IMG/VR virus record: IMGVR_UViG_3300042379_000679
Source of the DNA: a virus
Length of the DNA: 48,663 bases
Direction: 5' to 3' (one strand)
Below are positions 1 through 48,663 of this stretch, piece after piece. The notes beneath the pieces were generated by a model. The model had not been told where the DNA came from and ran no database searches. It was given only the letters and a program-made list of their open reading frames with translations. Both the position numbers and the translations under genes were made by a program. The first letter of the stretch is position 1. Every line of letters starts with the position of its first letter.

Positions 1-374
1 AAAGCACCGGCCTGATCGGCCGGTGTGAAGTGGTTGAAGCTCAGAAAGCAAAGCACCGGCCTGATCGGCCGGTGTGAAGTGGTTGAAGCTCAGAAAGTAA
101 AGCACCGGCCTGATCGGCCGGTGTGAAGTGGTTGAAGCTCAGAAAGTAAAGCACCGGCCTGATCGGCCGGTGTGAAGTGGTTGAAGCTCAGAAAGCAAAG
201 CACCGGCCTGATCGGCCGGTGTGAAGTGGTTGAAGCTCAGAAAGCAAAGCACCGGCCTGATCGGCCGGTGTGAAGTGGTTGAAGCTCAGAAAGTAAAGCA
301 CCGGCCTGATCGGCCGGTGTGAAGTGGTTGAAGCTCAGAAAGTAAAGCACCGGCCTGATCGGCCGGTGTGAAGT
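1..374. repeat. Tandem array of a 49-bp unit, left part (7.6 units). It continues across the circular junction with 48292..48663.
   Basis: The unit AAGCACCGGCCTGATCGGCCGGTGTGAAGTGGTTGAAGCTCAGAAAG[C/T]A recurs with an exact 49-bp period. The only polymorphic base sits at 49,98,147,196,245,294,343 = C,T,T,C,C,T,T. The array breaks at 375. Each unit holds a perfect hairpin, CACCGGCC-TGATC-GGCCGGTG. Confidence 0.97.
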
Positions 375-1300: not shown

Positions 1301-1356
1301 TAGATCGATTCCTTATCTGTTGACTAATTCAGGGGAAACATTCCCCCGCCGCAAGT

Positions 1357-1385
1357 AGTATCGATCCGAATATCTGTATTTTCAA
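1357..1385 (-). promoter_or_regulatory. Candidate sigma70-type promoter for the 467..1300 gene
   Basis: The minus strand reads TTGAAA-17 nt-GATACT. Confidence 0.3.
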
Positions 1386-1516
1386 GCCATTTTTACGAGA
1401 TCGGACTGGAACGTAAGTCTCTGGCCTGGCTGGCCTTTGGGGCGATTTCTGGGGGCTGGCTGGCCCCCTGGAGGGGGCTGGATGGGCGAGCGTGTGCATG
1501 GGCGTGTTTGGCTTAG

Positions 1517-1620
1517 TGTCACTGTGTCACTGTATCCATGAGTGTCAGTGTATCACTGTGTCACTGTGTGGCCTCCTGCCTGATTATCAGGTGGTCGTAG
1601 TTCCGTAAGTGTCACTGTGC
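1517..1620 (+). repeat. Iteron cluster A: 6 copies of CA(C/G)TGT(A/G)T(C/G)
   Basis: CACTGTGTC 1520, CACTGTATC 1528, CAGTGTATC 1546, CACTGTGTC 1554, CACTGTGTG 1562, CACTGTGC 1613. All are in the same orientation, in an ORF-free region. Confidence 0.8.
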
Positions 1621-1642
1621 GAGTATGTTACGATTTTGGATC

Positions 1643-1668
1643 TGGCAGAATGGCAGAGAAGTGGCAGA
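1643..1668 (+). repeat. Three closely spaced TGGCAGA motifs
   Basis: TGGCAGA at 1643, 1651 and 1662. Related GTGGCAG copies occur near 1774 and 1877. Confidence 0.6.
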
Positions 1669-2011
1669 AAATGTCAACGATCTGGGCGAATGTTGAACAA
1701 ATTGCAAGGGAGCCAGAAGTCAACAAGATTGTGAAATAAAGAACGAAGTCCCGAGCCGGAGGGATTGGAGGTCAGTGGCAGGGTGACGGGCGTGAGCCTG
1801 GGGCGAGGGTGCTGGGCTGGCTCGTTTAGGCTTAATTAAGCGTGATTAGGTCCCAAAGCGAGCTTTTTTAAGAAAAGTGGCAGTGTGTGCAATCACAAAC
1901 CCTCCTCCCAATCTCCTCCCCTGAACCAATCATCACTAAGTTGTGTAAGATGGTGATATATGGTTTGCTGGTTAATAACTTACAACCTATCCCCGCGCCG
2001 TGTATGATGTT

Positions 2012-2049
2012 GCGTAAATAACAAAGAAGCCCAGCGGGTTGCTGGGCTT
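2012..2049 (-). terminator. Rho-independent terminator downstream of the 2079..2570 gene
   Basis: 9-bp stem AAGCCCAGC/GCTGGGCTT (2027-2049) with a 5-nt loop. On the minus strand it is followed by CTTTGTTATTT. Confidence 0.7.
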
Positions 2050-2078
2050 GAAATCGTATCTGGATTGTGGCGAGTGGA

Positions 2079-7372: not shown

Positions 7373-7559
7373 ACGGACAATCGTCTACGGTATTCCGGCT
7401 GATTTCTATACAGTCGAAGAGACAAAGCTGTTGATGGACGATATCATCGGTCGAAAAAAACTTGATCAGGATAAGTGGGCTGAGATTATCAGGGATGCTC
7501 GCTCGAGAATGGCCGAAAAAGAAAAACCGAATCTCCCCTTGCGCCCTGATCATCCATGA
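7359..7559 (+). CDS. Hypothetical protein (66 aa)
   Basis: Operon context. Confidence 0.55.
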   Translation: MNMVERTIVYGIPADFYTVEETKLLMDDIIGRKKLDQDKWAEIIRDARSRMAEKEKPNLPLRPDHP

Positions 7560-7601
7560 GATAGAATTCATCCGTCCCTTAACACTCGAAAGGATAGAGA
7601 A

Positions 7602-7874
7602 ATGTCATACGAAGATGAGATCGAAGATAACGAAGAGTCGGAAAACGGATTTAATGTCCCTCGCTTCGATGAGGCTGAAACAGAAGAGTACATGACGATC
7701 TTGATCGACTCTGTTTTTACGCCCGAAAGCCTGAGGAAACTGGGCTTTTTAGCCTTGGAAGACCTGAGGGAGCAGTACAAAAAGGCGGGTGAATGGCCCA
7801 ACTGTGAGCTAAGACAGGGAGAAGACTTCGGGAAAAGATTGCTCAATCAAATCGCCTGGAAAATGAACATCTGA
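7602..7874 (+). CDS. Hypothetical strongly acidic protein (90 aa)
   Basis: AAGGA upstream. The N-terminus is MSYEDEIEDNEESENG. It is the last gene before the terminator. Confidence 0.65.
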   Translation: MSYEDEIEDNEESENGFNVPRFDEAETEEYMTILIDSVFTPESLRKLGFLALEDLREQYKKAGEWPNCELRQGEDFGKRLLNQIAWKMNI

Positions 7875-7944
7875 CTTGTCAGATCCTAATTTTGCGTGTA
7901 CAATATTTGCTCAGTCCTGGTCACGGACGATCAGAATCCATCAG

Positions 7945-7979
7945 CCCCTTGAGCTTGTTGCTTGAGGGGTCTTTTTTTT
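7945..7979 (+). terminator. Rho-independent terminator of the rightward early operon
   Basis: 10-bp stem CCCCTTGAGC/GCTTGAGGGG (two G-U pairs) with loop TTGTT, followed by T8. Confidence 0.8.
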
Positions 7980-8337
7980 AATACTGCACATCGATTTCAC
8001 GCACAGAATACGGGTAACAGCCTCTCGGAGGTAATCTCCTGACAAAGTTACCCACATTGACCTGTTCGTCGTCCGTAGGTGGCTTTACAGGCTCGCTATT
8101 GGCAATCCCTGCCATCTTGTTTCTACGCTTGATCTCAGCAGCAAAAGCTCTTGCCCCAGGCATCCCTAGCGACTTTTTAATTTTTGCTTTCCTGCACTCC
8201 TTGCAAACAACAGCCGAGTTTCCCGCCAAAGCCTCCTTGTCATTATTGACAATAGAGACAGTGACGGTTAAGTCGTTGATCCCACAGTAGATGCAGGAGC
8301 GTTTATCACGCCCCACAATGGTTATCCAGTTTGTCAC
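7978..8337 (-). CDS. Zinc-finger protein, degenerate HNH-like (119 aa, GTG start)
   Basis: CIYCG...(28 aa)...CKECRKAK resembles the CxxC...CxxC frame of HNH nucleases but lacks the D-H catalytic pair. The GTG start overlaps the stop of the frame-B ORF 8334..9032. Confidence 0.55.
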   Translation of the reverse strand: MTNWITIVGRDKRSCIYCGINDLTVTVSIVNNDKEALAGNSAVVCKECRKAKIKKSLGMPGARAFAAEIKRRNKMAGIANSEPVKPPTDDEQVNVGNFVRRLPPRGCYPYSVREIDVQY

Positions 8338-8466
8338 GATTCGATCCTTCTTCCAAGCATCACGCCGTCGATTTCAACGTATTCAAATTCATCCTGAGTT
8401 GGGCCAGGCATCAGGCAATCCTCGGCATAGTCAACGCCGCATGGGCAATTCCCATCCTCATCGCAA

Positions 8467-9300
8467 TCAACTGAGAAGATCACGGGCAACCATGGGTTCT
8501 CTGGTAACGGTGTTCCGAAGTGATTGTTCAAGTATTTTCCATGCTGTTGCTGCCACAACCGGAACCTGACCGTTCCCAAGGGCTTTAAGCCTTCCCACCC
8601 TATCGGCCACCCCATGATCCAACCGACCCACAGAGGGTTCAGCTGACCACCAGTCTTGGATTCCTCTCTCTCTCTCTCTCTCTCTCTCGCAAAGACCTGT
8701 CTGGGCAGTTGGTCCAGCCGATTCCGTACAGTCCCGTCCTTGTTGATCGATGTGGTCTTCTGACCCGCAGTATCCTTCCAGTCCCGGCTGTTGGGAGTGA
8801 CCCACTTCTCTTTCGCACAAGATCCAGATGCGTTTTCTGAGGTGGTTAGCTCCACAGTCGGCAGCAGATAACACTGTCCACGCCGCATCAAACCCGAGGT
8901 CGGCCATTTCTCCGAGAACTCTGTCGAGTCCTCTTGAGGTAAGGGCTGGGACGTTTTCCAGGAAAACGAATCGGGGTTCCACTTCGCGAATGACTCGAAC
9001 GGCTTCAAAGAAGAGCGATGATTTTTCGCCATGTATACCTTCCCCCTTGCCAGCCAGACTGATGTCCGTGCAAGGAAATCCGGCAGCGATCACATCCACG
9101 TAGTTTCGCCAGCCTGTTGCGTCAAAGGTCTTTATGTCATCGTGGATATGCATCTCGGGGAGGAACCCATCGGCAATCCTCTGAGCCAGCACCTTGCGGC
9201 AATATGGATCAATCTCCACAGCACAAACAGGCGTATGCCCCAGTAGTAATCCACCAAGGATTCCTCCACCAGCCCCAGCAAATAGATGCATTTCCCGCAT
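8467..9300 (-). CDS. DNA (cytosine-5) methyltransferase
   Basis: Motifs: FAGAGGG (I), GFPCTDIS (IV), ENV (VI), RKRIWIL (VIII), then WWSAEPSVGRL...RLKALGNGQVP (X). GGAG lies 6 nt upstream of the ATG at 9300. Confidence 0.85.
   Translation of the reverse strand: MREMHLFAGAGGGILGGLLLGHTPVCAVEIDPYCRKVLAQRIADGFLPEMHIHDDIKTFDATGWRNYVDVIAAGFPCTDISLAGKGEGIHGEKSSLFFEAVRVIREVEPRFVFLENVPALTSRGLDRVLGEMADLGFDAAWTVLSAADCGANHLRKRIWILCEREVGHSQQPGLEGYCGSEDHIDQQGRDCTESAGPTAQTGLCERERERERGIQDWWSAEPSVGRLDHGVADRVGRLKALGNGQVPVVAATAWKILEQSLRNTVTREPMVARDLLS
8664..8688. repeat. (CT)12/(GA)12 dinucleotide microsatellite inside the methyltransferase gene
   Basis: 25 nt of perfect alternating CT. It encodes ERERERER in the methyltransferase frame. 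Confidence 0.97.
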
Positions 9301-9354
9301 GTGACACTCCAGTAGACCCTGTAAATATGTCAACGCAGAATATCATAATACATG

Positions 9355-10635
9355 TCAAACAGCAATCACTCTTCTCATATTACCGCATAAATGCGTGTAA
9401 CCTAACGAGATACTATCCACGCAGTCGTCATGTACATCCGCAGGAGTCCCAGTAAAGGAATCGATCTCCTCGAAGCATGCATCCGTCCAGCCACCAAGAA
9501 CATAGAAAATGTTTCCAGCTGATGCCGCGCGGCTAAAAGGGACTGCCCTTGTCAATTTGTTTGACCCAGGTGAACTCCAGGCAACACGCCTTCCGGCCAG
9601 ATTCTTCAGTTGATGCTGCAACAACCGCTTCCCAGCCGAGCCAGGCTCAACCTCAATTACAATCGTTGTTCCAGGTCCATCCTCATCCGATGTTTGCGAG
9701 ATTTTTGGATCAACGTCCTCAGCCGAATATTGCTGGCGAATCTGGTCAAAGATGATCACCTTCTCTGTCCCTGGAATCAGGCCCATCAGAGTCCCAACCG
9801 TGTAATCCGACCTTCGGCCCACAGTCGCAGCACAGTCCCAACTTCGGCACATAATGAGCCTCTCGGGTATCGGTCCTTGCCATGGTCTGATCCACGATGA
9901 CTTCATCAAAGCCCCGTCCGTATCGCAAAACAGCCCTTCAACTTCCTGTTTGTAGAAAGCCCCATCATAAGCAGCCTTAAGGCTTTGCACGAAGAAGTCA
10001 GGGTTGAACGTGTTGGAATATGATGGAGCATGGATCATCTCAGCAATGCCAGCCTGGATGGCTCGGTATTCCCACCTGTTTTTCCCTCGAGGGGTAAAAG
10101 TTGCCCATAACTTACCGGGATTCTTTCTTAAGCGGCCCAGCAGAACTTTATAGGTATCTTCATCGCAAAAGCTGGCCTCATCCATGTACACAGCCCCAGC
10201 ATTAGTCCCCCGCAGCCTGTCCGGCTTATCCGCAGATCTCCACAAAATTGTCCGGTCACCTTTGACCTTCGTTTCCATATCCGTTTTGTTGTGGCTCATG
10301 ATCAGGCCAGACTGACCGTAAAGCTCTTCAAACATACGGAACGTGGAGTCTTTGAGGATCGTAAAAGTCGGTGCAACGACAATCGTGAGCGTCCCTTTAG
10401 GCTGGTTCATAATCTCGATCACGCCAGCACGAGTCTTCCCAGCACCAACCCCACCCACAAAAAATTTCTGCTTCGATGGAGAGACCCAGAACTGCAACTG
10501 CTGTGGAGTAAAGGTACTTACATTATGTATCTGACGACGACCCGTCTTCTCCTTCCGAAGCTGCGAGAACAGGGAGTTCTGATTCATTCGTTCCAGCCGG
10601 AAGTCGTCCTGATCCATCGACATATTTTTTGACAT
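9355..10635 (-). CDS. terL: Terminase large subunit
   Basis: Walker A GGVGAGKT and Walker B VYMDEA. The C-terminal nuclease-type region reads SWDCAAT...DYTV...HDDCVDS. The ORF is trimmed to the ATG at 10635 (GGGGAA upstream). Confidence 0.9.
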   Translation of the reverse strand: MSKNMSMDQDDFRLERMNQNSLFSQLRKEKTGRRQIHNVSTFTPQQLQFWVSPSKQKFFVGGVGAGKTRAGVIEIMNQPKGTLTIVVAPTFTILKDSTFRMFEELYGQSGLIMSHNKTDMETKVKGDRTILWRSADKPDRLRGTNAGAVYMDEASFCDEDTYKVLLGRLRKNPGKLWATFTPRGKNRWEYRAIQAGIAEMIHAPSYSNTFNPDFFVQSLKAAYDGAFYKQEVEGLFCDTDGALMKSSWIRPWQGPIPERLIMCRSWDCAATVGRRSDYTVGTLMGLIPGTEKVIIFDQIRQQYSAEDVDPKISQTSDEDGPGTTIVIEVEPGSAGKRLLQHQLKNLAGRRVAWSSPGSNKLTRAVPFSRAASAGNIFYVLGGWTDACFEEIDSFTGTPADVHDDCVDSISLGYTHLCGNMRRVIAV

Positions 10636-11549: not shown

Positions 11550-11575
11550 TATGCCATCGGACGTTACGTCTGGTT

Positions 11576-11647
11576 CCACGGGTCGCCACATGGGTAGGCA
11601 AAAGGCTCAAGGGCTTTCGGATGCAGGTTCAAATCCTGTCCCGTGGA
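11576..11647 (+). tRNA. tRNA with an atypical anticodon arm. Anticodon CAA if a 7-nt loop is assumed; identity uncertain.
   Basis: - Acceptor stem: perfect 7 bp, CCACGGG/CCCGTGG, with U8.
- D arm: GCC/GGC, with GG in the loop.
- T arm: GCAGG-TTCAAAT-CCTGT.
- Variable region: 5 nt.
- Anticodon stem: AAAG[G]/[G]CTTT, with a G-G at 31:39 and loop CTCAAGG. Confidence 0.6.
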
Positions 11648-11676
11648 TTGGCTGCCAGGTCGCATACTTCTTCGGT

Positions 11677-12621
11677 ATGATCCTCAAGACACGCTCGGCC
11701 TGGTTCAGCCTTCAAATCCTAAAGATCCTCCCTACCCATGGAAGGGGAATCTCTAAGGACTGCCACTTGCAACGTCATCACTACCTCGGTGCTTCAGAAA
11801 TTGCCTGTATTTTAGGCATCTCGCCATTTGGCGACAAATTTAAAGTCTGGTATGGAAAAACCCATCCAAGAGAATTCGATTCAACCCCGACAGGCAAGAT
11901 GCAACTGGGGCTTGATACGGAAGACTTCGTTCTCACCCAGTTTGAAAAGCGGTTTAATACAACCGTCACTCGCAAACAAGAGCGGATGCGTCACTGGCTG
12001 GAAGACTGGGCTGGTTGCACTCTTGACGGTATGGCCGTTGTAAACGGCGAGAAAGCCGTGATTGAAGCCAAGACAATTGGCACATCCATTTACAACACGC
12101 CTCCCGATTACTACGTCATCCAGGTGCTTTGGCAGCAGTGGGTTGCTGGCGTTGATCAAGGTTATCTGGTCGTCTGGTCCACCAAAGATCTTGCGTTTGA
12201 ATCCTATCCGATCCATATTGCAGATCACCAGGCCAAATTGACTGAAGCTGTTCAGGCCGGAAAAGAATTCTGGATGAACCACGTTGTAACCGAAATCCCC
12301 CCGGAACGAAATACAACTGAACGTCAAGACAAAGAATTACCGGAAGATCTTCTCGAAGAATATTGCCATGTCCAGGACCAGATCAAAGATCTCACCGTCA
12401 GGAAAGATATTCTTCGCCAGCAAATCGTCGAAGCCATGGGTTGTCCTAGCGAATTGAAAAGCCAGTCTTCAAAATACCAGCTTGACATCACAACGACACA
12501 GACCAAACGATTGAATTCCAAAAAACTGGAGAGTGACAATCCAGAACTCGTGCAAAATTATTTTGAAACCTCGAGCAGTCAAAGGGTAGTTGCCAAAAGA
12601 TTATCTGCTCGAATTTCCTGA
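11677..12621 (+). CDS. YqaJ/lambda-exonuclease-like PD-(D/E)XK recombination nuclease
   Basis: LGASEIACILGISPFGDKFKVW (YqaJ N-terminal motif) and CTLDGMAV...AVIEAKT (D...ExK). The start is uncertain: ATG 11677, or the TTG near 11769 with AAGGA upstream. The track ORF start at 11506 runs through the tRNA. Confidence 0.8.
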   Translation: MILKTRSAWFSLQILKILPTHGRGISKDCHLQRHHYLGASEIACILGISPFGDKFKVWYGKTHPREFDSTPTGKMQLGLDTEDFVLTQFEKRFNTTVTRKQERMRHWLEDWAGCTLDGMAVVNGEKAVIEAKTIGTSIYNTPPDYYVIQVLWQQWVAGVDQGYLVVWSTKDLAFESYPIHIADHQAKLTEAVQAGKEFWMNHVVTEIPPERNTTERQDKELPEDLLEEYCHVQDQIKDLTVRKDILRQQIVEAMGCPSELKSQSSKYQLDITTTQTKRLNSKKLESDNPELVQNYFETSSSQRVVAKRLSARIS

Positions 12622-13020
12622 TTTGATTTTGAAGGCCTTCTTAAACAAGTCCATCGCTTTAGGCTGACCTTTGACAGGGTTGGCCTTTTCTGTTTCTGTG
12701 GGCATATCCATGGCATGCGTATTGATCACGCAGTTTTCCCAAGGTCGTAGCTGCACGGTTGGAGCAGTAGCCGCTGGCTGAACAATCGCTTTTGAACCTG
12801 GAACAAGTTTACGAATTTCAGTCTCTGTTGCTGTTCCGTACCTCTCAGTCATCGCCGAAACAATCACATCGTTGATCGTTGTTCTGCCTTCCATGGAAAT
12901 CAACTTTAATTTAGCCCATAGAGCTTCCGGCATAATAATAGAGGCCCGCCGTGAGGCAGACCTCCTTCCGGTTGGATGATTATTCTTCTTGTACTTCTTG
13001 TCTGCTGGCTTCTGAGTCAT
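12601..13020 (-). CDS. Ribbon-helix-helix (CopG/Arc-like) DNA-binding protein
   Basis: RRASIIMPEALWAKLKLISMEGRTTINDVIVSAMTERY fits a strand-helix-helix pattern. AAGGGA lies upstream of the ATG at 13020. Confidence 0.6.
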   Translation of the reverse strand: MTQKPADKKYKKNNHPTGRRSASRRASIIMPEALWAKLKLISMEGRTTINDVIVSAMTERYGTATETEIRKLVPGSKAIVQPAATAPTVQLRPWENCVINTHAMDMPTETEKANPVKGQPKAMDLFKKAFKIKSGNSSR

Positions 13021-13076
13021 GTATCTATCCCTTAGAGAAGAGAATCCATTCTCACAAACCAGTCCATTGAAGTCAA

Positions 13077-13547
13077 TCACGCAGCCAGTACTGGGTTACG
13101 GATTAGAGCGATCATGTCAAGTGCGGCTTCTGTGAGGCTCACAGGTTCATACTCTAAGTCATCGCTCAAACTACCGTCCATGTGCATCAATCGCCCATCG
13201 GAAGTCGGTATCAGCCAGTTACCATCACCGTAAGCGACTTCATCAGGAGATCTTAAGTAAGCCTTTATCCAAGCACAAGGCAGAGAGTCATCGACAAAGT
13301 TGCCCACCAGAGCCAGAGCGAAATCCTTGGGACAAGGTTCACCCTCTCTCCAGTTCGACCAGGTCGAAACAACACGAGAATCATTAACAATTTCAAGGCC
13401 CATACCGAAGCTAAGAGTAGACATACGAACACTTTCTATCCTACCGAAGGTGCAAATAGGTATCGCCAGACCAAACAAACACCCATCGTGAGTGAAAGAG
13501 CTTGATCTGCGCGGATGTATACTACTGAACATCGAGACACTAGTCAA
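13077..13547 (-). CDS. Hypothetical protein (up to 156 aa; start uncertain)
   Basis: An ORF downstream of int on the same strand with no recognisable motif. An alternative start is at 13424. Confidence 0.5.
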   Translation of the reverse strand: MTSVSMFSSIHPRRSSSFTHDGCLFGLAIPICTFGRIESVRMSTLSFGMGLEIVNDSRVVSTWSNWREGEPCPKDFALALVGNFVDDSLPCAWIKAYLRSPDEVAYGDGNWLIPTSDGRLMHMDGSLSDDLEYEPVSLTEAALDMIALIRNPVLAA

Positions 13548-13670
13548 GAGCTAAAGAGTGGGTATCAGGAAAAAGCTCTAAAACATTCCGTTTCTGCCAT
13601 TCCTGACCACCCTAACCTCTTTTACTTCATATTGTTAACGCGATTGCGAATTTTCGCTTCCTGCCATGGG

Positions 13671-14702
13671 TCAAGCTGGCTTAACCAGCCCCTTCGCTTT
13701 CATCGCCGACTCAGCCATGTACTCCTTGTCCTGGTGAACCTGTGAGTAGACCTTCATGATCATGGTTACGTCCCTGTGTCCCATCAGCTTTGCCAATGTC
13801 ACAGGATCAACCCCGTTTTGCAAAGCCTGTGTGCAGTATCCTTTACGGAATGCTCCAAGGTGAATCTTGACTCCAAACTTATTGCGAAGACGAATCATCG
13901 CATCCTTTACGGAAGTCTTATTCCACGGGTTGCCCTGTGTGTTGACCATAATTGGCCCCTCAGAGCGTCTCTTGGCATAATCCGACAGAATCTCCATGGC
14001 TCGATCCGATGCGATGTAGACCGTTCTGGCGTACTTCTTGCCCTTGGCCTCTGCCGCAGGGAACACGATCATTCGCTCATCCTTACGGAAGTGCCGAGCC
14101 TCGATCAGGACCAGTTCCTGAGGTCGCATACCTGTATCCCAGGCAAGAATCATAAGATCCTTAAGCGGAGACTCAGGGATGTTGGACTCGATAAACGACC
14201 ACTGCTCAGGCGTTATGTAATCTTCTCGGGCTTCAGGAGAACACTTTTCAAGATGCTCCACTGGGTCAGTCTCGATCAGCCTGTTTTTTTTGGCCCAGCT
14301 AAATAGCCTTTTGATAGCCCGTGCGAAGTTGTAACGGCTGTTGGCCTTCCATGTCCGCTGGCTGGAAATCATAAGAGAAATCTGGCTCAAGCTGACATTC
14401 TCTGCCACCGTATCTCCTTTCACGTACTGGGCTAACTTATCAAAATACATACCATACCACTGCCACGTTCGCTCGGAACGAGACGTTTTCATCTCCTCAA
14501 TGAAGGCATCACAGATGGTTTTGACCGTTGGCTTGTTCGATTCCTCAGGAACCCCACCAGCCATGATCAAGTGCCATTTGGCCCAAGATTCTGCCTTGCT
14601 TTCTGCCAACTTTATCTGCCGCTTACCAACTTGTAAGTACCACGCTCTACGTGATTTACGGTAGAACGGTTCATTTCGCGATTCCATAGCTTGTACTCGC
14701 AT
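13671..14702 (-). CDS. int: Tyrosine-recombinase phage integrase
   Basis: Box I DTGMRPQEL, HLGAFRKGYCT (H-x-x-R) and LMGHRDVTMIMKVYSQV (H...Y). It lies adjacent to the tRNA-derived attP. Confidence 0.9.
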   Translation of the reverse strand: MRVQAMESRNEPFYRKSRRAWYLQVGKRQIKLAESKAESWAKWHLIMAGGVPEESNKPTVKTICDAFIEEMKTSRSERTWQWYGMYFDKLAQYVKGDTVAENVSLSQISLMISSQRTWKANSRYNFARAIKRLFSWAKKNRLIETDPVEHLEKCSPEAREDYITPEQWSFIESNIPESPLKDLMILAWDTGMRPQELVLIEARHFRKDERMIVFPAAEAKGKKYARTVYIASDRAMEILSDYAKRRSEGPIMVNTQGNPWNKTSVKDAMIRLRNKFGVKIHLGAFRKGYCTQALQNGVDPVTLAKLMGHRDVTMIMKVYSQVHQDKEYMAESAMKAKGLVKPA

Positions 14703-14776
14703 TTACTGCCAGTACAACAGAATATAGCCGTTTACGAACTCTAACGTCTCGCTGTAAGTTCTTATTGTCTAAGGAA

Positions 14777-14819
14777 TGGAGACGATCGGGATCGAACCGA
14801 CAACCCCCTGCTTGCAAAG
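14777..14819 (-). other. attP core: 3' portion of a tRNA-Ala(UGC) gene, from the anticodon loop to the discriminator
   Basis: The minus strand reads TTTGCAA-GCAGG-GGGTT-GTCGG-TTCGATC-CCGAT-CGTCTCC-A. U70 and A73 match Ala identity. No matching 5' half (GGGGACG...) is found upstream. Confidence 0.75.
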
Positions 14820-14919
14820 CTGAGGGCAAACTGTTGTACTGTATGGGTTTAGGTCATTTTCATCCCGCCGAACAGCTCGACGGGACAAGAGTGAATTTAG
14901 ACTTCCGACCACCTGACTG

Positions 14920-15177
14920 TCAAGAAAAATCTTGATCCATTTCTTCAAGTTCTTTTTCAAGTTCCTTGAGAGCAGGTTTCATCATGGCGATTTGCTCGTC
15001 GAGAGTCAGATCTAAATAACATTTTAGTAAAGCTGATACGAGAGCTTCGGCTGAGACCTGTCGGCCTTCAAAAACCAATCCTCGTTCAGAGAGTTCGATG
15101 CAGTTACGCTTAATGCCTTCGTGTATACGAGGCGTTGATCGGGCATTAACTCGCGGTCCAGAGCTTAACGTAGCCAT
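14920..15177 (-). CDS. Small RHH-like protein, candidate lysogeny regulator (85 aa)
   Basis: PRVNARSTPRIHEGIKRNCIELSERGL fits a strand-helix pattern. It is divergent from the replication operon and flanked by repeated ACAAGA/ATTTAGAC motifs. Confidence 0.5.
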   Translation of the reverse strand: MATLSSGPRVNARSTPRIHEGIKRNCIELSERGLVFEGRQVSAEALVSALLKCYLDLTLDEQIAMMKPALKELEKELEEMDQDFS

Positions 15178-15208
15178 TACTATACGACCCTTTCCACGTG
15201 GGACGATT

Positions 15209-15493
15209 GAGATTTAGACACAAGACGTTCTTGCGTCAACCAAATAGTAGTCCGGCTCGAAACGATTGTCAACAAGAAAGTCAAAAATATTTTTTCCTGG
15301 ACATGTCAGCGTTGACCCCTCTTCTTGTAAAGGAATTCTTGTCAGAGATTCGGTGGATAGACATTTCTGGTTCCACGACCTCCTGCGTATTTTTAAGCGT
15401 TTCGTGAAAAACCTGAAAATTTTTTCGTATTTGCTGTTGACATGTTTTGCGGGAACCGATATCTTCCACTATCCCAACTGGGGGATGACAAGA
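15209..15493. promoter_or_regulatory. Switch region with repeated ACAAGA/TCTTGT half-sites
   Basis: - Palindrome: CAAGA-CGT-TCTTG at 15221-15233.
- ACAAGA: 15272 and 15488.
- TCTTGT: 15323 and 15337.
- ATTTAGAC: 15212, with a second copy at 14895 next to ACAAGA at 14885. Confidence 0.45.
15437..15465 (+). promoter_or_regulatory. Promoter of the replication and recombination operon
   Basis: GTTGACA-17 nt-TATCTT, 52 nt upstream of the 15518 ATG. Confidence 0.5.
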
Positions 15494-15517
15494 AGTCTTA
15501 ACGAAGGGAGTCCAGCA

Positions 15518-16024
15518 ATGGATTTAAAGAATCAAGCTGTTGTGTTGGTACGTGCAGGAATCGCCAAAAAGATTGGCAGACCACACTTTAGCTCGTACGA
15601 AGCAAATTGCCAGATTGAAATGTCGGTCGATCTCGGAATGGTCACTGATGAGCGTTTTCCACAATTGCTGGGAGATATTTACGACCGTGTACAAAAAGCA
15701 GTGGATCAGCAGATTGCCGAAGAAGTTGGTCGAGACGGAGTCTCTGCCACACCACCTCCTGCCAAGCAAAACCTGATTGAACAGGCCGCTGAACAGCCAA
15801 CCGTGATTAAACCTGAAAAACCTTTCAGGGATTTCTTGCTGGCTAAGTCTCAGGAACTGGCTGTTGCTCCACAAGGGCTTGTCAAGCACTGGTACAAATG
15901 CTTTGTCGATGGCTCGGAAACGGATTTCCAGAAGCAGGGCAAAGCTCTTGCCGACTTGTGGGATGCTGGTCGCGTGGGTCCATTAGTCATGACGGAACGA
16001 CTTACTCAACAACCTGTTGTCTGA
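15518..16024 (+). CDS. Hypothetical protein (168 aa)
   Basis: GAAGGGAG lies 7 nt upstream of the ATG. The track ORF 15266 extends through the promoter region. Confidence 0.7.
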   Translation: MDLKNQAVVLVRAGIAKKIGRPHFSSYEANCQIEMSVDLGMVTDERFPQLLGDIYDRVQKAVDQQIAEEVGRDGVSATPPPAKQNLIEQAAEQPTVIKPEKPFRDFLLAKSQELAVAPQGLVKHWYKCFVDGSETDFQKQGKALADLWDAGRVGPLVMTERLTQQPVV

Positions 16025-16049
16025 TAAGAACTGATCAGGAGGATCAACC

Positions 16050-16268
16050 ATGCTAGTACTTTCAAGAAACCCTGGCGAATCGATTCAATTGTTTGGACCT
16101 GAGGGGAGGTTGCTTGCAACGATAACGTATATCACTCTGTCAAGCACGAGGTCGATCAGGGTTGGCTTTGAGGCTGAACCAGACATTACGATAGTTCGCT
16201 CCGAGATTTCGGGTAGACCTAATAATGGGAAAAAACCCGCTCACTCTCGGATGGATAAAACTACTTAA
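16050..16268 (+). CDS. csrA: CsrA/RsmA-family RNA-binding protein homolog
   Basis: MLVLSRNPGESIQL...IRVGFEAEPDITIVRSEI aligns by eye with E. coli CsrA MLILTRRVGETLMI...VRIGVNAPKEVSVHREEI, with L4, R6 and the R44-equivalent kept. AGGAGGA lies upstream. Confidence 0.7.
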   Translation: MLVLSRNPGESIQLFGPEGRLLATITYITLSSTRSIRVGFEAEPDITIVRSEISGRPNNGKKPAHSRMDKTT

Positions 16269-17079
16269 GGATCATGGGATAAACACTGTCCCGATGTCTT
16301 CGGAACAGAAAATGCCATTGATTCAAACATCACAATATTGGAGCGGTTTTCCCTTGTCGGCCATGAATGATTTGCAACCCAAGAATATCGCTGCTTTGCC
16401 AGGGCTGGCTTCACGACTTCTCGTACTGGACCTGGATGGTCCACAGGATATGATGCGTGCATTCTTCGAAACTCGACCAGCTTTACCGCGAACTTGGCAA
16501 GTTAGTACTGGCGGGGGTGGTTTGCACCTCTGGTTCAGGCTACCTCACTGGTACAAGCGACCCATCCCCAACGTGCGACTGTGGCAAGGTACTGGAAAAC
16601 ACGAAGAAGTCCTCGTCCTTGGTGACAGAAGGCTTGCTTCCTGCCCTCCTACTCAGTACGGCTCTGGGAAAATGTACAAATGGACGGGTTCAGTCAACCC
16701 GCTCACGGGCAAATGTGGCATCGCGCCGCAGTGGTTGCTCAGTGAAATCGAAGACAAAACGACTCAGAAGAAGCAACCTTTTACAGGATCATTGACATTT
16801 TCTGCGTCTCGTTCTCTTGCCCCATCCGATGAGATCCCTGAACGACTCTCTATCTTGCAGAGTTATGGCTTGAGGCTGGCTGGAAAGCCCAATCAGGCTG
16901 GATGGATTCCATGCTATCGACCAGGTGACCCGCATGATAGTCGGCCCAGTGCCTCTGTGCGAGTTGATGGATCGGTAGTCTGGACTAGTGGTGGCTCTAT
17001 GGATTTCTGGGGTGCATTGGTTGCACTCCATGCTTTTGACTCGATTGAAGCCGCAGTGACGGCAATAAGAGGGATTTGA
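16225..17079 (+). CDS. Bifunctional primase-polymerase (Prim-Pol, archaeo-eukaryotic primase (AEP) superfamily)
   Basis: LLVLDLDGP (DxD), STGGGGLHLWF and LASCPPTQYGSGKMYKW match the Prim-Pol N-terminal domain pattern. Confidence 0.75.
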   Translation: MGKNPLTLGWIKLLKDHGINTVPMSSEQKMPLIQTSQYWSGFPLSAMNDLQPKNIAALPGLASRLLVLDLDGPQDMMRAFFETRPALPRTWQVSTGGGGLHLWFRLPHWYKRPIPNVRLWQGTGKHEEVLVLGDRRLASCPPTQYGSGKMYKWTGSVNPLTGKCGIAPQWLLSEIEDKTTQKKQPFTGSLTFSASRSLAPSDEIPERLSILQSYGLRLAGKPNQAGWIPCYRPGDPHDSRPSASVRVDGSVVWTSGGSMDFWGALVALHAFDSIEAAVTAIRGI

Positions 17080-17805: not shown

Positions 17806-18222
17806 ATGATGGATGCAGATCAGAAAATCAGAAATGCTTTTTCGGACGCTGAAAAGGCTGTACCAGATGCAGAATTGAAATACACGATTATCCGAGAGGC
17901 TTTTGAGTCTCACAAAGATGATGATGAACGACAGTACGAGTACATTTACGAGCGATTGGCGAAGCCTAAAAGGTCTGCTCTTGCCCGTGATATGAACGCA
18001 TGGTTATATCTACATAAGATAGCACATGAACTTCTGGCTCAGTCTCAGATCTGCTTACTTAATGCTGAAGGTGAAACACCTGGCCCACTACTTGCCCGAT
18101 TGCAACGCCCAGTGATTAGGTCGCCCAGGAACTGGAGGATTTGCGGCATCTGTGATGGGACTGGTGAAGACCCAACGATTGCTCATTGCAATGGATGCTG
18201 GGGACACGGGTATTATGTCTGA
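17806..18222 (+). CDS. Hypothetical protein with a DnaJ-type CxxCxGxG zinc motif pair
   Basis: The C-terminus reads CGICDGTGEDPTIAHCNGCWGHG. AGGAGG lies 5 nt upstream. Confidence 0.65.
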   Translation: MMDADQKIRNAFSDAEKAVPDAELKYTIIREAFESHKDDDERQYEYIYERLAKPKRSALARDMNAWLYLHKIAHELLAQSQICLLNAEGETPGPLLARLQRPVIRSPRNWRICGICDGTGEDPTIAHCNGCWGHGYYV

Positions 18223-20620
18223 GCTAACCTATTCTGCGTTAATGGATTGCGAGTTTTCAACTTATCCGTACCAGGATGAGGCGATTGATAAGATTAGGTC
18301 ATGGGTCTACGAGGATGATCATAAAGCTGGAATTCTCCAGATGGCGACCGGATGTATATCCGGTGATGCAATCGTGACTATTAACCGTGGAGGCAAGGGT
18401 GTTACTCGGTCTCTTCGGGATCACTTTAGGCTTCAGGCTGACCCAAGGGTCAAACCTCATGTAGTAAAGCGTGTCCGAAGTTTTAACGGTAAGCACGTTG
18501 AATGCAATGGATTCAGCCGTATCCAGTCCAGCGGGGTCAAGCCTGTTGTTAGGGTTCGATTTGCAAGTGGACGAGAACTCGTATGCACTCCTGATCATAA
18601 GATCTTGTCGTCGAATGGATGGGTTGAAGCAAAGGACTCGTCAGGCAAGAGTATCGTAGTCGAAGCAAGCCAACGCAAGTCCGGTGACCGGGAGCCGAAG
18701 CCTAAGAAGCGATACAGGCAAGTTAACAAACTTTACTATCACCCGTACGCTGGGAAATGCGTCTCGAACAGAAGAGGAAAGTCTCTAAGGCTTTATCGCG
18801 TGGCTTACCATAGGCTTGTGGTTGAGTCTGAAATGAATGAGATGCCCCTTGACAAGTACATTGAATGCTTGAGAAACGGAGACATTGGCAAGTCATGGGT
18901 TTATCTTGACCCAGCAGTAACCGCAGTTCATCACGTCAACGGAGATCATACTGACAACAGGAGCGGAAACCTGGCGATTATGAGTCATCAGGAGCATTGG
19001 TCTCTTGAAGGCAAACAAAGCAATCACCTGAACATCGGCAAAACGCTGGTTGAAACAGACAATGTCTTTGCCGTTGAGAATGCTGGCTGGATCGATACCT
19101 ACGACATCGTTAGCGTAGACAAGACAAGCAATTTCATTGCCAACGGAGTCGTTGTACATAACTGTGGAAAGACCGTAACCGTAGGTATTCTGATTCGTCA
19201 GTTGATTGAGGAGGGGTTTATCTCTCGAGCCTTGTTCGCAGTCCACCGGACAGAACTTGTGAAACAGGCAATAGACACGTTTGAATTGTGCGGGCTAATG
19301 GTGGGTCGTGAGCAAGGTTCCCATCACGGGTTTGCCCTAGGTGATCCGCATGTGGTTTGCACAACCATTCAGTCCATGACCAAGCGATGCAAGCGGTATC
19401 AGCCGGACGATTTCCAGTTGATCATCACGGATGAAGTCCATCACGCAGGAGAATCCAATAAGACATACTCATCCGTTTACGACCACTTCCCTGACTCAAA
19501 ACTTGTTGGGGTCACTGCAACGATTGATCGGCCTGACGGACAGAGTCTGAAGCGTTTCGAGGAAGTCGTTTACAGCTACTCGCTTTATGACGCGATCCAT
19601 GATCCTGCTGGCCCATTTTTATCACCTGTCAAGTTTGTCCGGTGTTCTCTGGGGGTTGACCTGAGGGGATGCAAAACAACGGGTAAGAATGGCGATTTCG
19701 CTCAGGGAGATCTTGGTCGTAAGATCCAGCCAGCCATCGAGCTATTAGCGAACGCGATCAGCAAAGAGATTGAGGACCGAAAGAAGATCATTGTCTTCAT
19801 GCCTGATGTTGGCTCGTCTATCGCGATGGCTGATGCCTTGAAGCAACTGGGACATGCTGCGGACTGGGTCTCCGGTGATAAGCCTGACCGTGATAGCACG
19901 ATACAGCGTTACAAAAACGGTCTCACAAAGATCCTTGTCAACTGCCAGATCCTCACCGAGGGGTTTGATGACAAGCCCACAGACTGTGTTGTTCTAAAGC
20001 CCACTCGAAGCCGGATCGCATACGCCCAGATGGTGGGTCGTGGTACGAGGCTTTGCAAAGATAAATCAGACTGTTTGATTCTGGATTTCTCACACACGAC
20101 AGACATGGATCTGATTGGGCCAAGCTCGTTGACAGATTGTGAGGAGGTTGATTCCAAGCGTGCTGAGGAGTTGGTCGAGGAGGGTGTTGATCTGTGGCAA
20201 GCTGTGGAGCGAGCCAAGACGGAACGTAAACAACGACAGGAGATCAAGGTTCCGGTTGCCAGGCTGGACATGAGTTATCGGCGGGTCGAGATTAATCCAT
20301 TTGAGCTTGCGGCTTCATTGGGTGTGTCCCGAGCCATGCTGACCAACGCCAATCGATTCGGAGAGCTTGCGACTCCCGCCCAGAAGGATTTTCTGAACAA
20401 GTCTGGGATGGCAGATGTCAATAACATGACCAAGCGTCAGGCTTCGCAGTTGATCGGCCAGATCATTGACAGACGAAACTCGGGGCTGTGTTCGATCAAA
20501 CAGTTGAACTACCTGATTTCGCTGGGGATGAAGCCTGAAAAGGCTCGAGGATTGCAGTTTGGACAGGCAGCAGAAGCGATTCAAAAGTACAGGTCGAATC
20601 AGGCTGGATCGCAAGAGTAA
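18215..20620 (+). CDS. SF2 (DEAD/DEAH-type) helicase precursor interrupted by an intein; the extein is about 531 aa
   Basis: The split Walker A, MATG|...|CGKT, is restored on splicing. Other motifs are DEVH (ITDEVHHAG), TAT (VGVTATIDR) and QMVGRGTR (VI). Confidence 0.88.
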   Translation: MSELTYSALMDCEFSTYPYQDEAIDKIRSWVYEDDHKAGILQMATGCISGDAIVTINRGGKGVTRSLRDHFRLQADPRVKPHVVKRVRSFNGKHVECNGFSRIQSSGVKPVVRVRFASGRELVCTPDHKILSSNGWVEAKDSSGKSIVVEASQRKSGDREPKPKKRYRQVNKLYYHPYAGKCVSNRRGKSLRLYRVAYHRLVVESEMNEMPLDKYIECLRNGDIGKSWVYLDPAVTAVHHVNGDHTDNRSGNLAIMSHQEHWSLEGKQSNHLNIGKTLVETDNVFAVENAGWIDTYDIVSVDKTSNFIANGVVVHNCGKTVTVGILIRQLIEEGFISRALFAVHRTELVKQAIDTFELCGLMVGREQGSHHGFALGDPHVVCTTIQSMTKRCKRYQPDDFQLIITDEVHHAGESNKTYSSVYDHFPDSKLVGVTATIDRPDGQSLKRFEEVVYSYSLYDAIHDPAGPFLSPVKFVRCSLGVDLRGCKTTGKNGDFAQGDLGRKIQPAIELLANAISKEIEDRKKIIVFMPDVGSSIAMADALKQLGHAADWVSGDKPDRDSTIQRYKNGLTKILVNCQILTEGFDDKPTDCVVLKPTRSRIAYAQMVGRGTRLCKDKSDCLILDFSHTTDMDLIGPSSLTDCEEVDSKRAEELVEEGVDLWQAVERAKTERKQRQEIKVPVARLDMSYRRVEINPFELAASLGVSRAMLTNANRFGELATPAQKDFLNKSGMADVNNMTKRQASQLIGQIIDRRNSGLCSIKQLNYLISLGMKPEKARGLQFGQAAEAIQKYRSNQAGSQE
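18353..19162 (+). mobile_element. Intein (270 aa) with an HNH homing-endonuclease domain, inserted in the helicase P-loop
   Basis: - Block A: CISGDAIVT.
- Block B: CTPDHKIL.
- HNH domain: HHVNGDHTDNRSGNLAIMSHQEH.
- Block F: TYDIVSVDKTSNFIANG.
- Block G: VVVHN, followed by the +1 Cys. Confidence 0.85.
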
Positions 20621-20925: not shown

Positions 20926-21121
20926 GCCTTATAAGGCTGAGATCTTCTACTATGACGAGCAGGATTTGCATTACTTGACGGTTTACGTGCTTGTCGATGG
21001 AGTCTTTGCTAAAGATCAAGCCTTTGGGTTTTTGGAGTGGGAAGGTCATCCATCGAGGAAGCTGGCAATTCAGGCATTTCAATCCTACGTAACAGCACAA
21101 AGGGCAAGCTCATGCAGTTGA
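20828..21121 (+). CDS. Hypothetical protein (97 aa; start uncertain)
   Basis: An ORF that overlaps the previous one by 98 nt. An alternative ATG is at 20867. Confidence 0.5.
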   Translation: MLEENQVGELGREMQTGNRWSTIDGATITLVDEPYKAEIFYYDEQDLHYLTVYVLVDGVFAKDQAFGFLEWEGHPSRKLAIQAFQSYVTAQRASSCS

Positions 21122-21909
21122 TATACGAACCCAAGGTAAAGGTTGCAACAGTGTCGGTTTTCCGAGACTACGATCTTAAAGATTATGCGTCAGGCATGCA
21201 CGCCCAGAACACACACAGCTTGGACCACATTCCCGAGTTTGCTGGCCGAGTATGCTACCAATCGTTCAAAAACCCTCGTCCTGGGGGCAACAGGGGTTAC
21301 ATTGGTCATATACTCGAGGTTGGTCATGGAAGCGTCCTGGAACACTCCTACGTGGGCTTATTGATCACAGGTGTTTCACGCAGCCTGACTCATGAGTTGA
21401 TCCGTCACAGGGCTGGAACCGCGATTTCCCAGCTATCTCAAAGATTTTGCGAACCTGACAATCTGGGCTACATTGTTCCACCTCTGATCATTAGAGATCT
21501 TGTTGCGGAGCAATGCTTCAAATCAGAAGTGACTGCTGCGTCTGCCTCTTATGACCGGATGCTCAATGTTTGCACCACAGCTATCAGCCGGAGATGGCAG
21601 GATGATCATCCTGACGAGACAGCTGACCGTGAAGCATTGACGTATATCCGTAAAAAGGCTCGCGAAGCCGCGAGATCTGTTCTGCCAAACTCGATTGAAA
21701 CTCACCTGTTCATGTCTGGGAATCTAAGGGCATGGCGAAATATCCTTGAACAGAGGGGTTCGATTCACGCTGACCTGGAAATCAGGCGACTTGCTGTGGC
21801 GATAGCTCGAGAAATCTACGTCTATGCAACAAGCGTCTTTCAAGATATGCACATATTCATTGATGTTGATGGGTATGAGTCTTTACGATTTGACCACAGA
21901 AAGGTTTGA
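21112..21909 (+). CDS. thyX: Flavin-dependent thymidylate synthase ThyX
   Basis: ThyX signature RHRAGTAISQLSQRF (RHRxxSxxxxSxR). The ORF is trimmed to the MQLIYEP start. Confidence 0.88.
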   Translation: MQLIYEPKVKVATVSVFRDYDLKDYASGMHAQNTHSLDHIPEFAGRVCYQSFKNPRPGGNRGYIGHILEVGHGSVLEHSYVGLLITGVSRSLTHELIRHRAGTAISQLSQRFCEPDNLGYIVPPLIIRDLVAEQCFKSEVTAASASYDRMLNVCTTAISRRWQDDHPDETADREALTYIRKKAREAARSVLPNSIETHLFMSGNLRAWRNILEQRGSIHADLEIRRLAVAIAREIYVYATSVFQDMHIFIDVDGYESLRFDHRKV

Positions 21910-48097: not shown

Positions 48098-48291
48098 ATC
48101 ATAACATAAGCAGGTGTGCATAACAAGATGGGAGTGAGGGGGAGGCTTTTTCTGTTTTTTATTTTTTTCTCTTTTAAGAATTCTCGACAAAGCGCATGGC
48201 CGACACGCCTGGGGCCACGGCTCCGAAAAAATCGCGAAATTGTGTCACATAAACTAGGTGTCCATGTCATGAAAACACCCTGGAAACAAGT

Positions 48292-48663
48292 AAAGCACCG
48301 GCCTGATCGGCCGGTGTGAAGTGGTTGAAGCTCAGAAAGCAAAGCACCGGCCTGATCGGCCGGTGTGAAGTGGTTGAAGCTCAGAAAGTAAAGCACCGGC
48401 CTGATCGGCCGGTGTGAAGTGGTTGAAGCTCAGAAAGTAAAGCACCGGCCTGATCGGCCGGTGTGAAGTGGTTGAAGCTCAGAAAGCAAAGCACCGGCCT
48501 GATCGGCCGGTGTGAAGTGGTTGAAGCTCAGAAAGCAAAGCACCGGCCTGATCGGCCGGTGTGAAGTGGTTGAAGCTCAGAAAGCAAAGCACCGGCCTGA
48601 TCGGCCGGTGTGAAGTGGTTGAAGCTCAGAAAGTAAAGCACCGGCCTGATCGGCCGGTGTGAA
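48292..48663. repeat. Tandem array of the same 49-bp unit, right part (7.6 units)
   Basis: Same unit and period. The polymorphic base at 48340,48389,48438,48487,48536,48585,48634 = C,T,T,C,C,C,T. The window ends inside a unit. Confidence 0.97.
48537..48663. other. 127-bp terminal overlap identical to 1..127, indicating circular closure of the assembly
   Basis: Register and polymorphic bases match (48585=C vs 49=C; 48634=T vs 98=T), and both segments end in ...GGTGTGAA. No other register reconciles the two C/T patterns. Confidence 0.85.

Follow-up and report, generated by a model that had tools for sequence, protein, structure and literature searches.

Proteins of the CsrA family are global translational regulators. 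An uncultured temperate phage has, in its replication operon, a short gene that raises the question of whether the virus carries a working member of this family and, if so, which transcripts it may control. The gene occupies 16050..16268 on the plus strand of the window, by which is meant the whole stretch of 48,663 nucleotides of viral DNA that was analyzed. A preliminary description made from the sequence took its 72-aa product to be a CsrA/RsmA homolog, and this reading is borne out by a family profile, the key residues, the predicted fold, purifying selection and conserved synteny. The csrA-like gene is a genuine but divergent member of the CsrA family. In this study, its family membership, structure, evolution and genomic setting were analyzed, and the functions that it may serve were weighed against one another.

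The window contains the whole genome of a temperate tailed phage (~48.3 kb), and an identical 49-bp tandem array is seen at each end. The genome encodes a portal, an HK97-type major head protein, a large terminase, tail fibres and a tyrosine integrase, together with a bifunctional primase/polymerase (Prim-Pol), an intein-containing superfamily-2 helicase, ThyX and a Holliday-junction resolvase. A tRNA 3'-half fragment beside the integrase, at about 14775..14830 (-), is probably attP. A consensus scan located a sigma-70-like promoter at 15437..15465 (+) (TTGACA, 17 nt, TATCTT; 10/12 matches), from which the rightward early/replication operon would be transcribed, and its -35 hexamer and the leader are kept in relatives, including the divergent relative L019. 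It faces, on the opposite strand, a divergent promoter-like site (15272..15244) for an 85-aa leftward gene that adjoins the integrase. The rightward operon begins with a gene for a 168-aa protein (15518..16024, +), taken from the list of open reading frames, the ATG of which at 15518 agrees with the 168-aa product called in relatives; this protein has no Pfam or PHROG match. It is followed by the genes for the CsrA-like protein, Prim-Pol, a 225-aa protein, a 139-aa protein, the helicase, a 97-aa protein and ThyX. The same order is found in every relative with enough flanking DNA, among about a dozen metagenomic relatives, and the position assigned to the csrA-like gene in the preliminary description, second in a replication operon, therefore holds for a promoter-led unit with conserved gene order. 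As transcription would start from this early rightward promoter, close to the integrase and the putative attP, the protein is expected to appear together with the replication proteins when lytic growth or induction begins.

The csrA-like open reading frame starts with an ATG, which is preceded at 7-nt spacing by a strong Shine–Dalgarno (SD) sequence, AGGAGG, and its 72-aa product reads MLVLSRNPGESIQLFGPEGRLLATITYITLSSTRSIRVGFEAEPDITIVRSEISGRPNNGKKPAHSRMDKTT. The profile search proposed in the preliminary description gave a significant match to the Pfam CsrA family PF02599 (E 2.5e-8), with 34.2 bits against a curated gathering score of 27 bits; the match spans residues 1-54 of the protein and positions 1-48 of the 53 in the profile, and the same family is found in every close relative of the protein. 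In addition, PHROG 9500, annotated 'CsrA-like regulator', matched with E 5.9e-6 and 27.2 bits, and the best sequence match in the PDB was RsmE (2jpp; E 0.02), aligned from residue 1. The NCBIfam csrA equivalogs TIGR00202 and NF002469 were not reached (23.9 versus 70.1 bits and 21.1 versus 73 bits, respectively). Scores so far under the cut-offs indicate a divergent, paralogue-type member of the family and not an orthologue of housekeeping csrA. Matches to WD40-repeat proteins, which appeared in searches of the PDB and of representative proteins, were rejected as spurious: they consist of multiple stretches of 10-20 residues and arise from a hairpin segment, 'GPDGRLLA', that resembles the WD40 repeat motif.

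The residues that define the family are retained. In an alignment of 111 relatives, L2, L4, G39 and R50 are invariant and M1, V3, R6, E41, A42 and E52 are nearly so. All of the CsrA motifs that had been named from the sequence are present, and R50, at the junction of beta5 and helix H1, aligns with R44 of E. coli CsrA in the alignments with RsmE and CsrA. The latter residue is essential to the recognition of GGA by CsrA (PMC7366521). An AlphaFold monomer model (AF2) calculated with the 111-sequence alignment has a pLDDT of 81.6, with values of >88 over residues 1-50; it supersedes an earlier AF2 run on nine near-identical sequences, which gave a pLDDT of 68 and weak Foldseek E-values. The model, which follows the structure prediction that the preliminary description proposed, has a CsrA-type core fold, and the top seven Foldseek matches in the PDB are all CsrA, RsmE or RsmA (probability 1.00; target-normalised TM 0.57-0.74, and 0.70-0.74 in six of the seven). 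The top structural matches in BFVD are several phage proteins annotated as CsrA. The CsrA core comprises residues 1-54, and residues 59-72 form a disordered tail (pLDDT <50). In the monomer model beta1 and beta5 are left unpaired, in line with what would be expected of a domain-swapped dimer. By homology, the protein should form a small homodimer with swapped domains, in which beta1, beta5 and R50 would contact GGA-containing RNA.

Compared with canonical CsrA, RsmA and RsmE (E. coli CsrA and P. fluorescens RsmE; PDB entries 1y00, 2jpp and 2bti), the phage protein has in common the five-strand beta core and the same motifs, namely the N-terminal MLxLxR strand, the RxGxxAP strand and the xxxxRxE strand with the essential arginine. 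The model superposes on the canonical structures with an r.m.s.d. of 1.7-2.7 Å over 53 residues, whereas the sequence identity is just 28-38%. The departures are of three kinds. An insertion described previously as nine residues long in fact amounts to six (4 + 1 + 1) relative to E. coli CsrA and RsmE, with four to five in the beta2-beta3 hairpin and one in the beta3-beta4 turn; the hairpin insertion is common to related CsrA-like proteins, the named ones of which come from Planctomycetota. Two positions are substituted: Asn7 takes the place of an Arg in E. coli CsrA and of a Lys in RsmE, and Val49 stands at the position of canonical His43. Furthermore, the C-terminal helix H1, the N-terminus of which contributes to RNA binding in canonical CsrA, is shrunk to about one turn in the model by Gly55-Arg56-Pro57, a point that the preliminary description did not mention; DSSP assigns a helix of three residues only (51-53), which is followed by this tripeptide and the low-confidence tail. 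The helix is likewise broken in some cellular relatives, whereas others keep it in full. Owing to Asn7, Val49 and the shortened H1, the affinity or specificity of the protein may differ from that of canonical CsrA.

The 3' end of the csrA-like gene overlaps the Prim-Pol gene (284 aa; 16225..17079, +; Pfam PF09250, E 1.8e-12; PHROG 906) in a different frame. The overlap, 16225..16268 (+), is exactly the 44 nt given in the preliminary description, and four observations together establish that it is real. The Prim-Pol open reading frame has no start codon ahead of the one at 16225; in every relative this codon is either ATG or GTG; the Pfam Prim-Pol domain starts as early as residue 17; and nearly all substitutions between the csrA stop codon and the next in-frame ATG are synonymous for Prim-Pol. 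Within the overlap itself, most changes are silent in the Prim-Pol frame but replace residues in the csrA frame. A downstream ATG, chosen by some gene callers in relatives and giving a product of 255 aa, was considered as the Prim-Pol start and is contradicted by the substitution pattern.

The selection acting on the two frames was estimated from Nei–Gojobori counts summed over eight distinct alleles, the pairs of which are not independent, so that the following dN/dS values are rough. Codons 1-58 of the csrA-like gene gave 0.24 in their own frame, with alleles down to 58% identity, and the core is thus under purifying selection. Codons 59-72 gave ~1.4 in the csrA frame, and the overlap nucleotides of these codons gave 0.25 when read in the Prim-Pol frame; the next 15 Prim-Pol codons gave 0.03. 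Being neutral in its own frame and constrained in that of Prim-Pol, the tail results from the overlap and is not selected for in itself. The basic tail that had been pointed out from the sequence does exist, but it is disordered, and its sequence is dictated by the N-terminus of Prim-Pol.

Close relatives of the protein (58-100% identity) were found only in metagenomes and IMG/VR contigs, and all are exactly 72 codons long. The phage clade is isolated: when 1.84 billion representative proteins were searched with a profile, only one 50%-identity representative had E <1e-30, and behind the clade came many small CsrA-like proteins with E-values of 1e-11 and weaker. Within the operon, the csrA core is the fastest-diverging segment. 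In L019 its nucleotide identity is 60%, versus 80-91% in the flanking genes, and in another relative, L013, the gene is a within-gene mosaic.

The preliminary description had also suggested that the overlap couples the expression of the two genes. Coupling is plausible in so far as no SD sequence precedes the Prim-Pol start, whereas one is present at the other operon genes that were checked, and a segment of 121 nt around this start in the window folds better than its shuffled versions (z -3.36; 0/200 shuffles as stable), with predicted stem-loops at 16200..16251 (+) around the start codon. However, RNAalifold gave no support from covariation (term +1), and pairs of this structure are broken in L013 and L019. 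The corresponding fold in L016 is not significant (z -0.98), and L013 reaches z -1.94 with different pairing. The modelled stem-loops therefore provide a possible, weakly backed structural basis for translational coupling.

Regarding the RNA sites that the protein may recognize, the closest candidate is its own ribosome-binding site. The SD sequence of the csrA-like gene lies in the 5-nt loop of an inverted repeat, TGATC-AGGAG-GATCA (16032..16046, +), which carries two overlapping GGA triplets (AGGAGGA). Overlapping GGA triplets at an SD sequence in a loop are the arrangement that CsrA proteins prefer. The repeat is invariant in 8/8 distinct relatives, and in L019 the 16-17 nt around the SD sequence are identical (GATCAGGAGGATCAAC), whereas the 8 nt upstream and the downstream coding sequence have diverged; identity amid such diverged surroundings indicates a constraint beyond the 6-nt SD sequence. 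The isolated SD hairpin is weak (-4.2 kcal/mol, z -0.66) and is absent from the minimum free-energy fold of its 66-nt context, which is less structured than shuffled sequences (z +1.6). As the repeat also contains two GATC sites, the SD sequence itself and a constraint at the DNA level could explain the conservation. The conservation of the repeat is thus consistent with, and weakly suggests, an autoregulatory site on the mRNA of the gene itself. The operon 5' leader, approximately 15472..15517 (+), may offer a candidate pair of CsrA-type sites, with GGA motifs at 15483-15485 and 15507-15509, 24 nt apart, the second of which falls within the SD sequence of the first gene (AGGGAG). Both motifs are retained in L019, which says little because the whole regulatory region is conserved, and folding of the leader is not significant (z -1.0). 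Across the genome, hairpins with GGA in the loop are not enriched (479 versus 457 ± 16 in shuffles). SD sequences within hairpins at two other genes of the operon (17796 and 20621) were considered as shared targets and were rejected, being neither conserved nor compensated in relatives.

Unlike canonical Csr systems, the phage gene has no GGA-rich antagonist RNA nearby. A sponge RNA of the CsrB/RsmZ type was sought in the window and rejected: the GGA density reaches at most 8-9 per 150 nt, always in coding sequence, and no non-coding stretch is GGA-dense. The search of the non-coding regions for binding sites that had been proposed thus found no raised GGA density, and the transcript of the terminal array, put forward as a binding partner, is unsupported because the 49-bp array contains no GGA on either strand. 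An Rfam scan of the window returned tRNA only. With regard to a protein antagonist of the FliW type, no neighbouring gene has a suggestive family match in Pfam or PHROG.

Taken together, the most likely function by analogy with the family is GGA-directed translational control. We regard it as probable, with good though incomplete confidence, that the gene encodes a functional CsrA-family RNA-binding regulator that is expressed early, its RNA binding being assigned by homology. In the mechanism that we favour, the protein would occupy SD-proximal GGA sites and repress translation post-transcriptionally. The best candidate for a direct target would be its own ribosome-binding site with the AGGAGGA repeat, giving negative autoregulation of the kind by which E. 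coli CsrA controls itself, and as the SD-less Prim-Pol start lies inside the csrA-like open reading frame, such autoregulation would also limit the translation of Prim-Pol. Action in trans on host mRNAs would be likely too, given the parallels of RsmQ on a plasmid and Bci in a phage. We infer dimerization, RNA binding, the targets and the coupling alike, and the specific step of autoregulation with coupling is put forward tentatively, as somewhat doubtful. A stronger version, in which the csrA-like and Prim-Pol genes form one post-transcriptional unit for the control of replication, is unlikely. In that version the Prim-Pol start would be reachable only by ribosomes translating the csrA-like gene, the helix-shortened protein would bind its own SD repeat and thereby set the dose of the replication initiator and influence the outcome of lysis versus lysogeny, and the rapid divergence and recombination of the core would be a sign of tuning that differs between alleles or of interaction with CsrA paralogues of the host. 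If true, it would make CsrA a governor of viral replication rather than a metabolic regulator.

Other explanations need to be weighed against GGA-directed control of phage transcripts. The protein might serve mainly to reprogram the host, as an extra CsrA paralogue acting on host mRNAs or as a competitor for host Csr antagonists, shifting the expression of metabolism, motility or defence in favour of the phage or lysogen, with phage transcripts unimportant. We give this reading a real but minority chance: both of the functionally studied CsrA homologues of mobile elements act in this way (RsmQ, PMC9928087; Bci, PMC7546807), the protein clusters with cellular paralogues of Planctomycetota located in stress-gene neighbourhoods, and candidate sites are not enriched across the phage genome. 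However, the gene is part of the early replication operon, with its end inside Prim-Pol, and is not expressed separately on the lysogeny side, and its own SD element is unusually conserved. Host reprogramming is compatible with the explanation favoured here. It is quite improbable that the protein instead antagonizes host CsrA, by forming inactive heterodimers or by titrating host partner proteins or sRNAs and so freeing CsrA-repressed genes. The shortened H1 and the lengthened beta2-beta3 hairpin would then account for an inactive subunit, in keeping with a helix of about one turn and a disordered tail, and the rapid divergence of the core in L019 and the mosaic gene of L013 form a pattern that can accompany arms races at a host interface; but the RNA-binding residues that could be checked (L2, L4, R6, R50 and E52) are kept under purifying selection, which is unexpected for a pure poison subunit, and cellular relatives, too, can have a shortened helix and insertions in the hairpin.

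Two further readings carry less weight still. The conserved tight linkage to, and overlap with, Prim-Pol in every relative, together with the canonical csrA found directly after RecT–YqaJ recombination genes in the unrelated phage L015, could point to a replication accessory factor, in which the CsrA fold would serve Prim-Pol and the helicase by binding primer RNA, single-stranded DNA or origin transcripts and would not regulate translation. We know of no CsrA-family member with such a role, any early gene would equally be expected near genes of DNA metabolism, and no iteron-like GGA array was found near the csrA-like gene; even with the csrA allele reported for the replication region of plasmid pMBA19a in a study cited in PMC7366521, this reading is highly improbable. 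Lastly, a chance open reading frame or a decaying remnant upstream of Prim-Pol might be suspected from the short length of the gene, the neutrality of its tail in its own frame and the NCBIfam equivalog cut-offs that it does not reach. This is contradicted by the present data, namely the Pfam match over threshold, the core dN/dS of 0.24, the length fixed at 72 codons, the strong SD sequence and the confident fold prediction, and its probability is close to nil. GGA-directed translational control by an early phage protein therefore remains the preferred reading.

The origin of the gene can be approached through its cellular relatives, of which the closest named are from Gemmataceae, Thermoguttaceae, Planctomycetaceae and Pirellula. 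The CsrA paralogues of Planctomycetota (MAGs of Gemmataceae, Thermoguttaceae and Pirellula), together with metagenomic relatives, are the closest non-phage relatives, with 35-58% identity. They have in common with the phage protein the MLVLSR(K/N)P(G/N)ES start, the 'PDGR' hairpin insertion, GFEA(x)PD and IVRxE, and the 'RP' break of the helix is also seen in some paralogues of this type. The paralogues examined are chromosomal, in stress-related or two-component neighbourhoods, whereas the phage copy lies in a phage operon. A profile search of genome contigs yielded no prophage, and the CsrA genes of Planctomycetota that it recovered were all chromosomal and distant (36-40%); the homologues of the major capsid protein are all metagenomic sequences, with isolated phages <31% identical. 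The gene was probably captured from the pool of CsrA paralogues in the lineage of the host, and this lineage is most likely Planctomycetota, an assignment for which the csrA-like gene is the sole guide. To our knowledge, few phages of Planctomycetota have been reported and almost no post-transcriptional regulation has been studied in this phylum.

For one plasmid, it has been shown that the CsrA of a mobile element can take control of the physiology of the host, and work on a single Pseudomonas phage suggests the same. With the present gene, phage-borne CsrA comes to include an uncultured lineage of freshwater phages whose CsrA resembles those of Planctomycetota, and the conserved inverted repeat at its SD sequence, combined with the overlapping SD-less Prim-Pol start, offers a compact and testable case for CsrA control of phage replication genes. 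The main practical value lies in the correct annotation of the gene and in a candidate for experiments.

The preliminary description was not aware of CsrA-like genes as a standard phage feature. Phage csrA genes are in fact documented, although they belong to a minority: csrA was reported in 30 of 2517 phage genomes, mainly of Pseudomonas, Burkholderia and Klebsiella phages (Sobrero and Valverde 2020, PMC7366521), 88 of 50,697 phage records matched E. coli CsrA in a plain tblastn search, and PHROGs has family 9500 dedicated to CsrA-like proteins. The homologues described include the RsmM type and Bci of P. aeruginosa temperate phages (phi297, F116 and AUS531phi), and further examples come from Burkholderia phage DC1, noted for a CsrA-like protein (PMC8310193), and the Bcep22 group, from Vibrio and Xanthomonas phages and from PHROG 9500. 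Deletion of bci in AUS531phi affected infectivity, quorum-sensing gene expression, biofilm and motility (PMC7546807). Placement of csrA in early DNA-metabolism operons also recurs, as indicated by L015, a temperate phage from IMG/VR in which csrA lies near the integrase as well as beside the recombination genes. As in the known phage homologues, the product of the csrA-like gene is a small CsrA-domain protein; many of the carriers are temperate, and the proteins are annotated as regulators. The present gene differs in its Prim-Pol overlap, hairpin insertion, truncated helix and likely host phylum, and its product of 72 aa contrasts with the 123 aa of Bci, which has a long C-terminal extension. 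The proteins of isolated phages showed no meaningful similarity to it (best tblastn E 0.6).

Plasmid RsmQ (pQBR103) and the ICE-borne CsrT of Legionella are likewise CsrA homologues on mobile elements, and they are thought, or have been shown, to control host translation and transfer of the element; RsmQ binds mRNAs of the host, whose proteome it remodels (PMC9928087). They belong to conjugative elements and not to a virus, and they are close in sequence to the Rsm proteins of their hosts. Furthermore, their function has been shown experimentally, whereas the phage protein is known here from its sequence and a model. What is new is thus the lineage, with its distance from the proteins of isolated phages, its probable link to Planctomycetota and its overlap with Prim-Pol, and not the kind of system.

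The csrA-like gene (window 16050..16268, + strand) was compared with its counterparts in L019 (622..840) and L013 (1428..1646), two relatives of the window phage whose operon is otherwise conserved. The core of this gene is the most diverged part of the operon, since the L019 copy has only 60% nucleotide identity there versus 80–91% in the flanks. Furthermore, the L013 copy is a mosaic within the gene, in which the 5' two-thirds resemble the window and the 3' third resembles L019. Taken together, the divergence of the L019 core and the L013 mosaic point to the exchange of csrA alleles through recombination.

Just past the csrA stop codon, and just ahead of an in-frame ATG at 16294, lies a small hairpin, GGGATA-AACAC-TGTCCC (16276..16292, + strand), located within the Prim-Pol coding region. 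Compensatory double changes were found among the relatives at two of its pairs, namely A-U to C-G in four of the eight sequences and G-C to A-U in two, and both changes sit at synonymous codon positions.

Inteins also appear to be mobile among the replication genes of this phage group. The helicase of the window (18152..20620, + strand) comprises 822 amino acids, compared with 534–551 in relatives, the additional length being an intein with an HNH endonuclease. Conversely, ThyX carries an intein in the relatives L001–L004 (578 amino acids), whereas the window ThyX (21037..21909; 290 amino acids) is intein-free; the L001 loci set against the window helicase and ThyX genes were 12157..13761 and 14259..15995.

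The divergent promoter region upstream of the operon is flanked by a leftward gene of 85 amino acids (14920..15177, − strand) and a rightward gene of 168 amino acids (15518..16024, + strand). Both are kept in all of the relatives, neither matched a Pfam or PHROG family, and their position makes them candidates for lysis–lysogeny switch proteins.

Beside the integrase gene (13671..14702, − strand), a fragment resembling half of a tRNA, extending from the anticodon loop to the 3' end, was observed at approximately 14775..14830 on the minus strand (GGTTCGATCCCGATCGTCTCCA), where ARAGORN called no full tRNA. This fragment is probably the attP core, and a matching attB could reveal the host of the phage. 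In addition, the phage bears a complete tRNA-Leu(CAA) gene (11575..11648, + strand; ARAGORN, Rfam 42.8 bits).

A 49-bp tandem array occupies both ends of the window (1..374 and 48288..48663), with ∼7.6 copies per end that are 98–99% identical; by sharing this array, the two ends mark the contig as either circular or terminally redundant. Every unit contains a perfect hairpin with an 8-bp stem, CACCGGCC...GGCCGGTG, and GGA is absent from both strands of the array. An origin, a pac site and a regulatory array are all possibilities for this element. Near it lies a 766-nt stretch without a long open frame on either strand (1313..2078), which contains 6.5 tandem copies of the 8-bp unit GTGTCACT (1516..1569) and may be an origin or regulatory region.

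Outside this phage group, the unrelated viral contig L015 (IMGVR_UViG_3300025117_000152; region 7534..10186) encodes a canonical CsrA of 61 amino acids (Pfam, 73.7 bits). The start of its gene abuts the stop of a RecT–YqaJ recombination module, with an integrase located ∼1 kb away, and this contig is a further case of csrA within a temperate-phage early operon.
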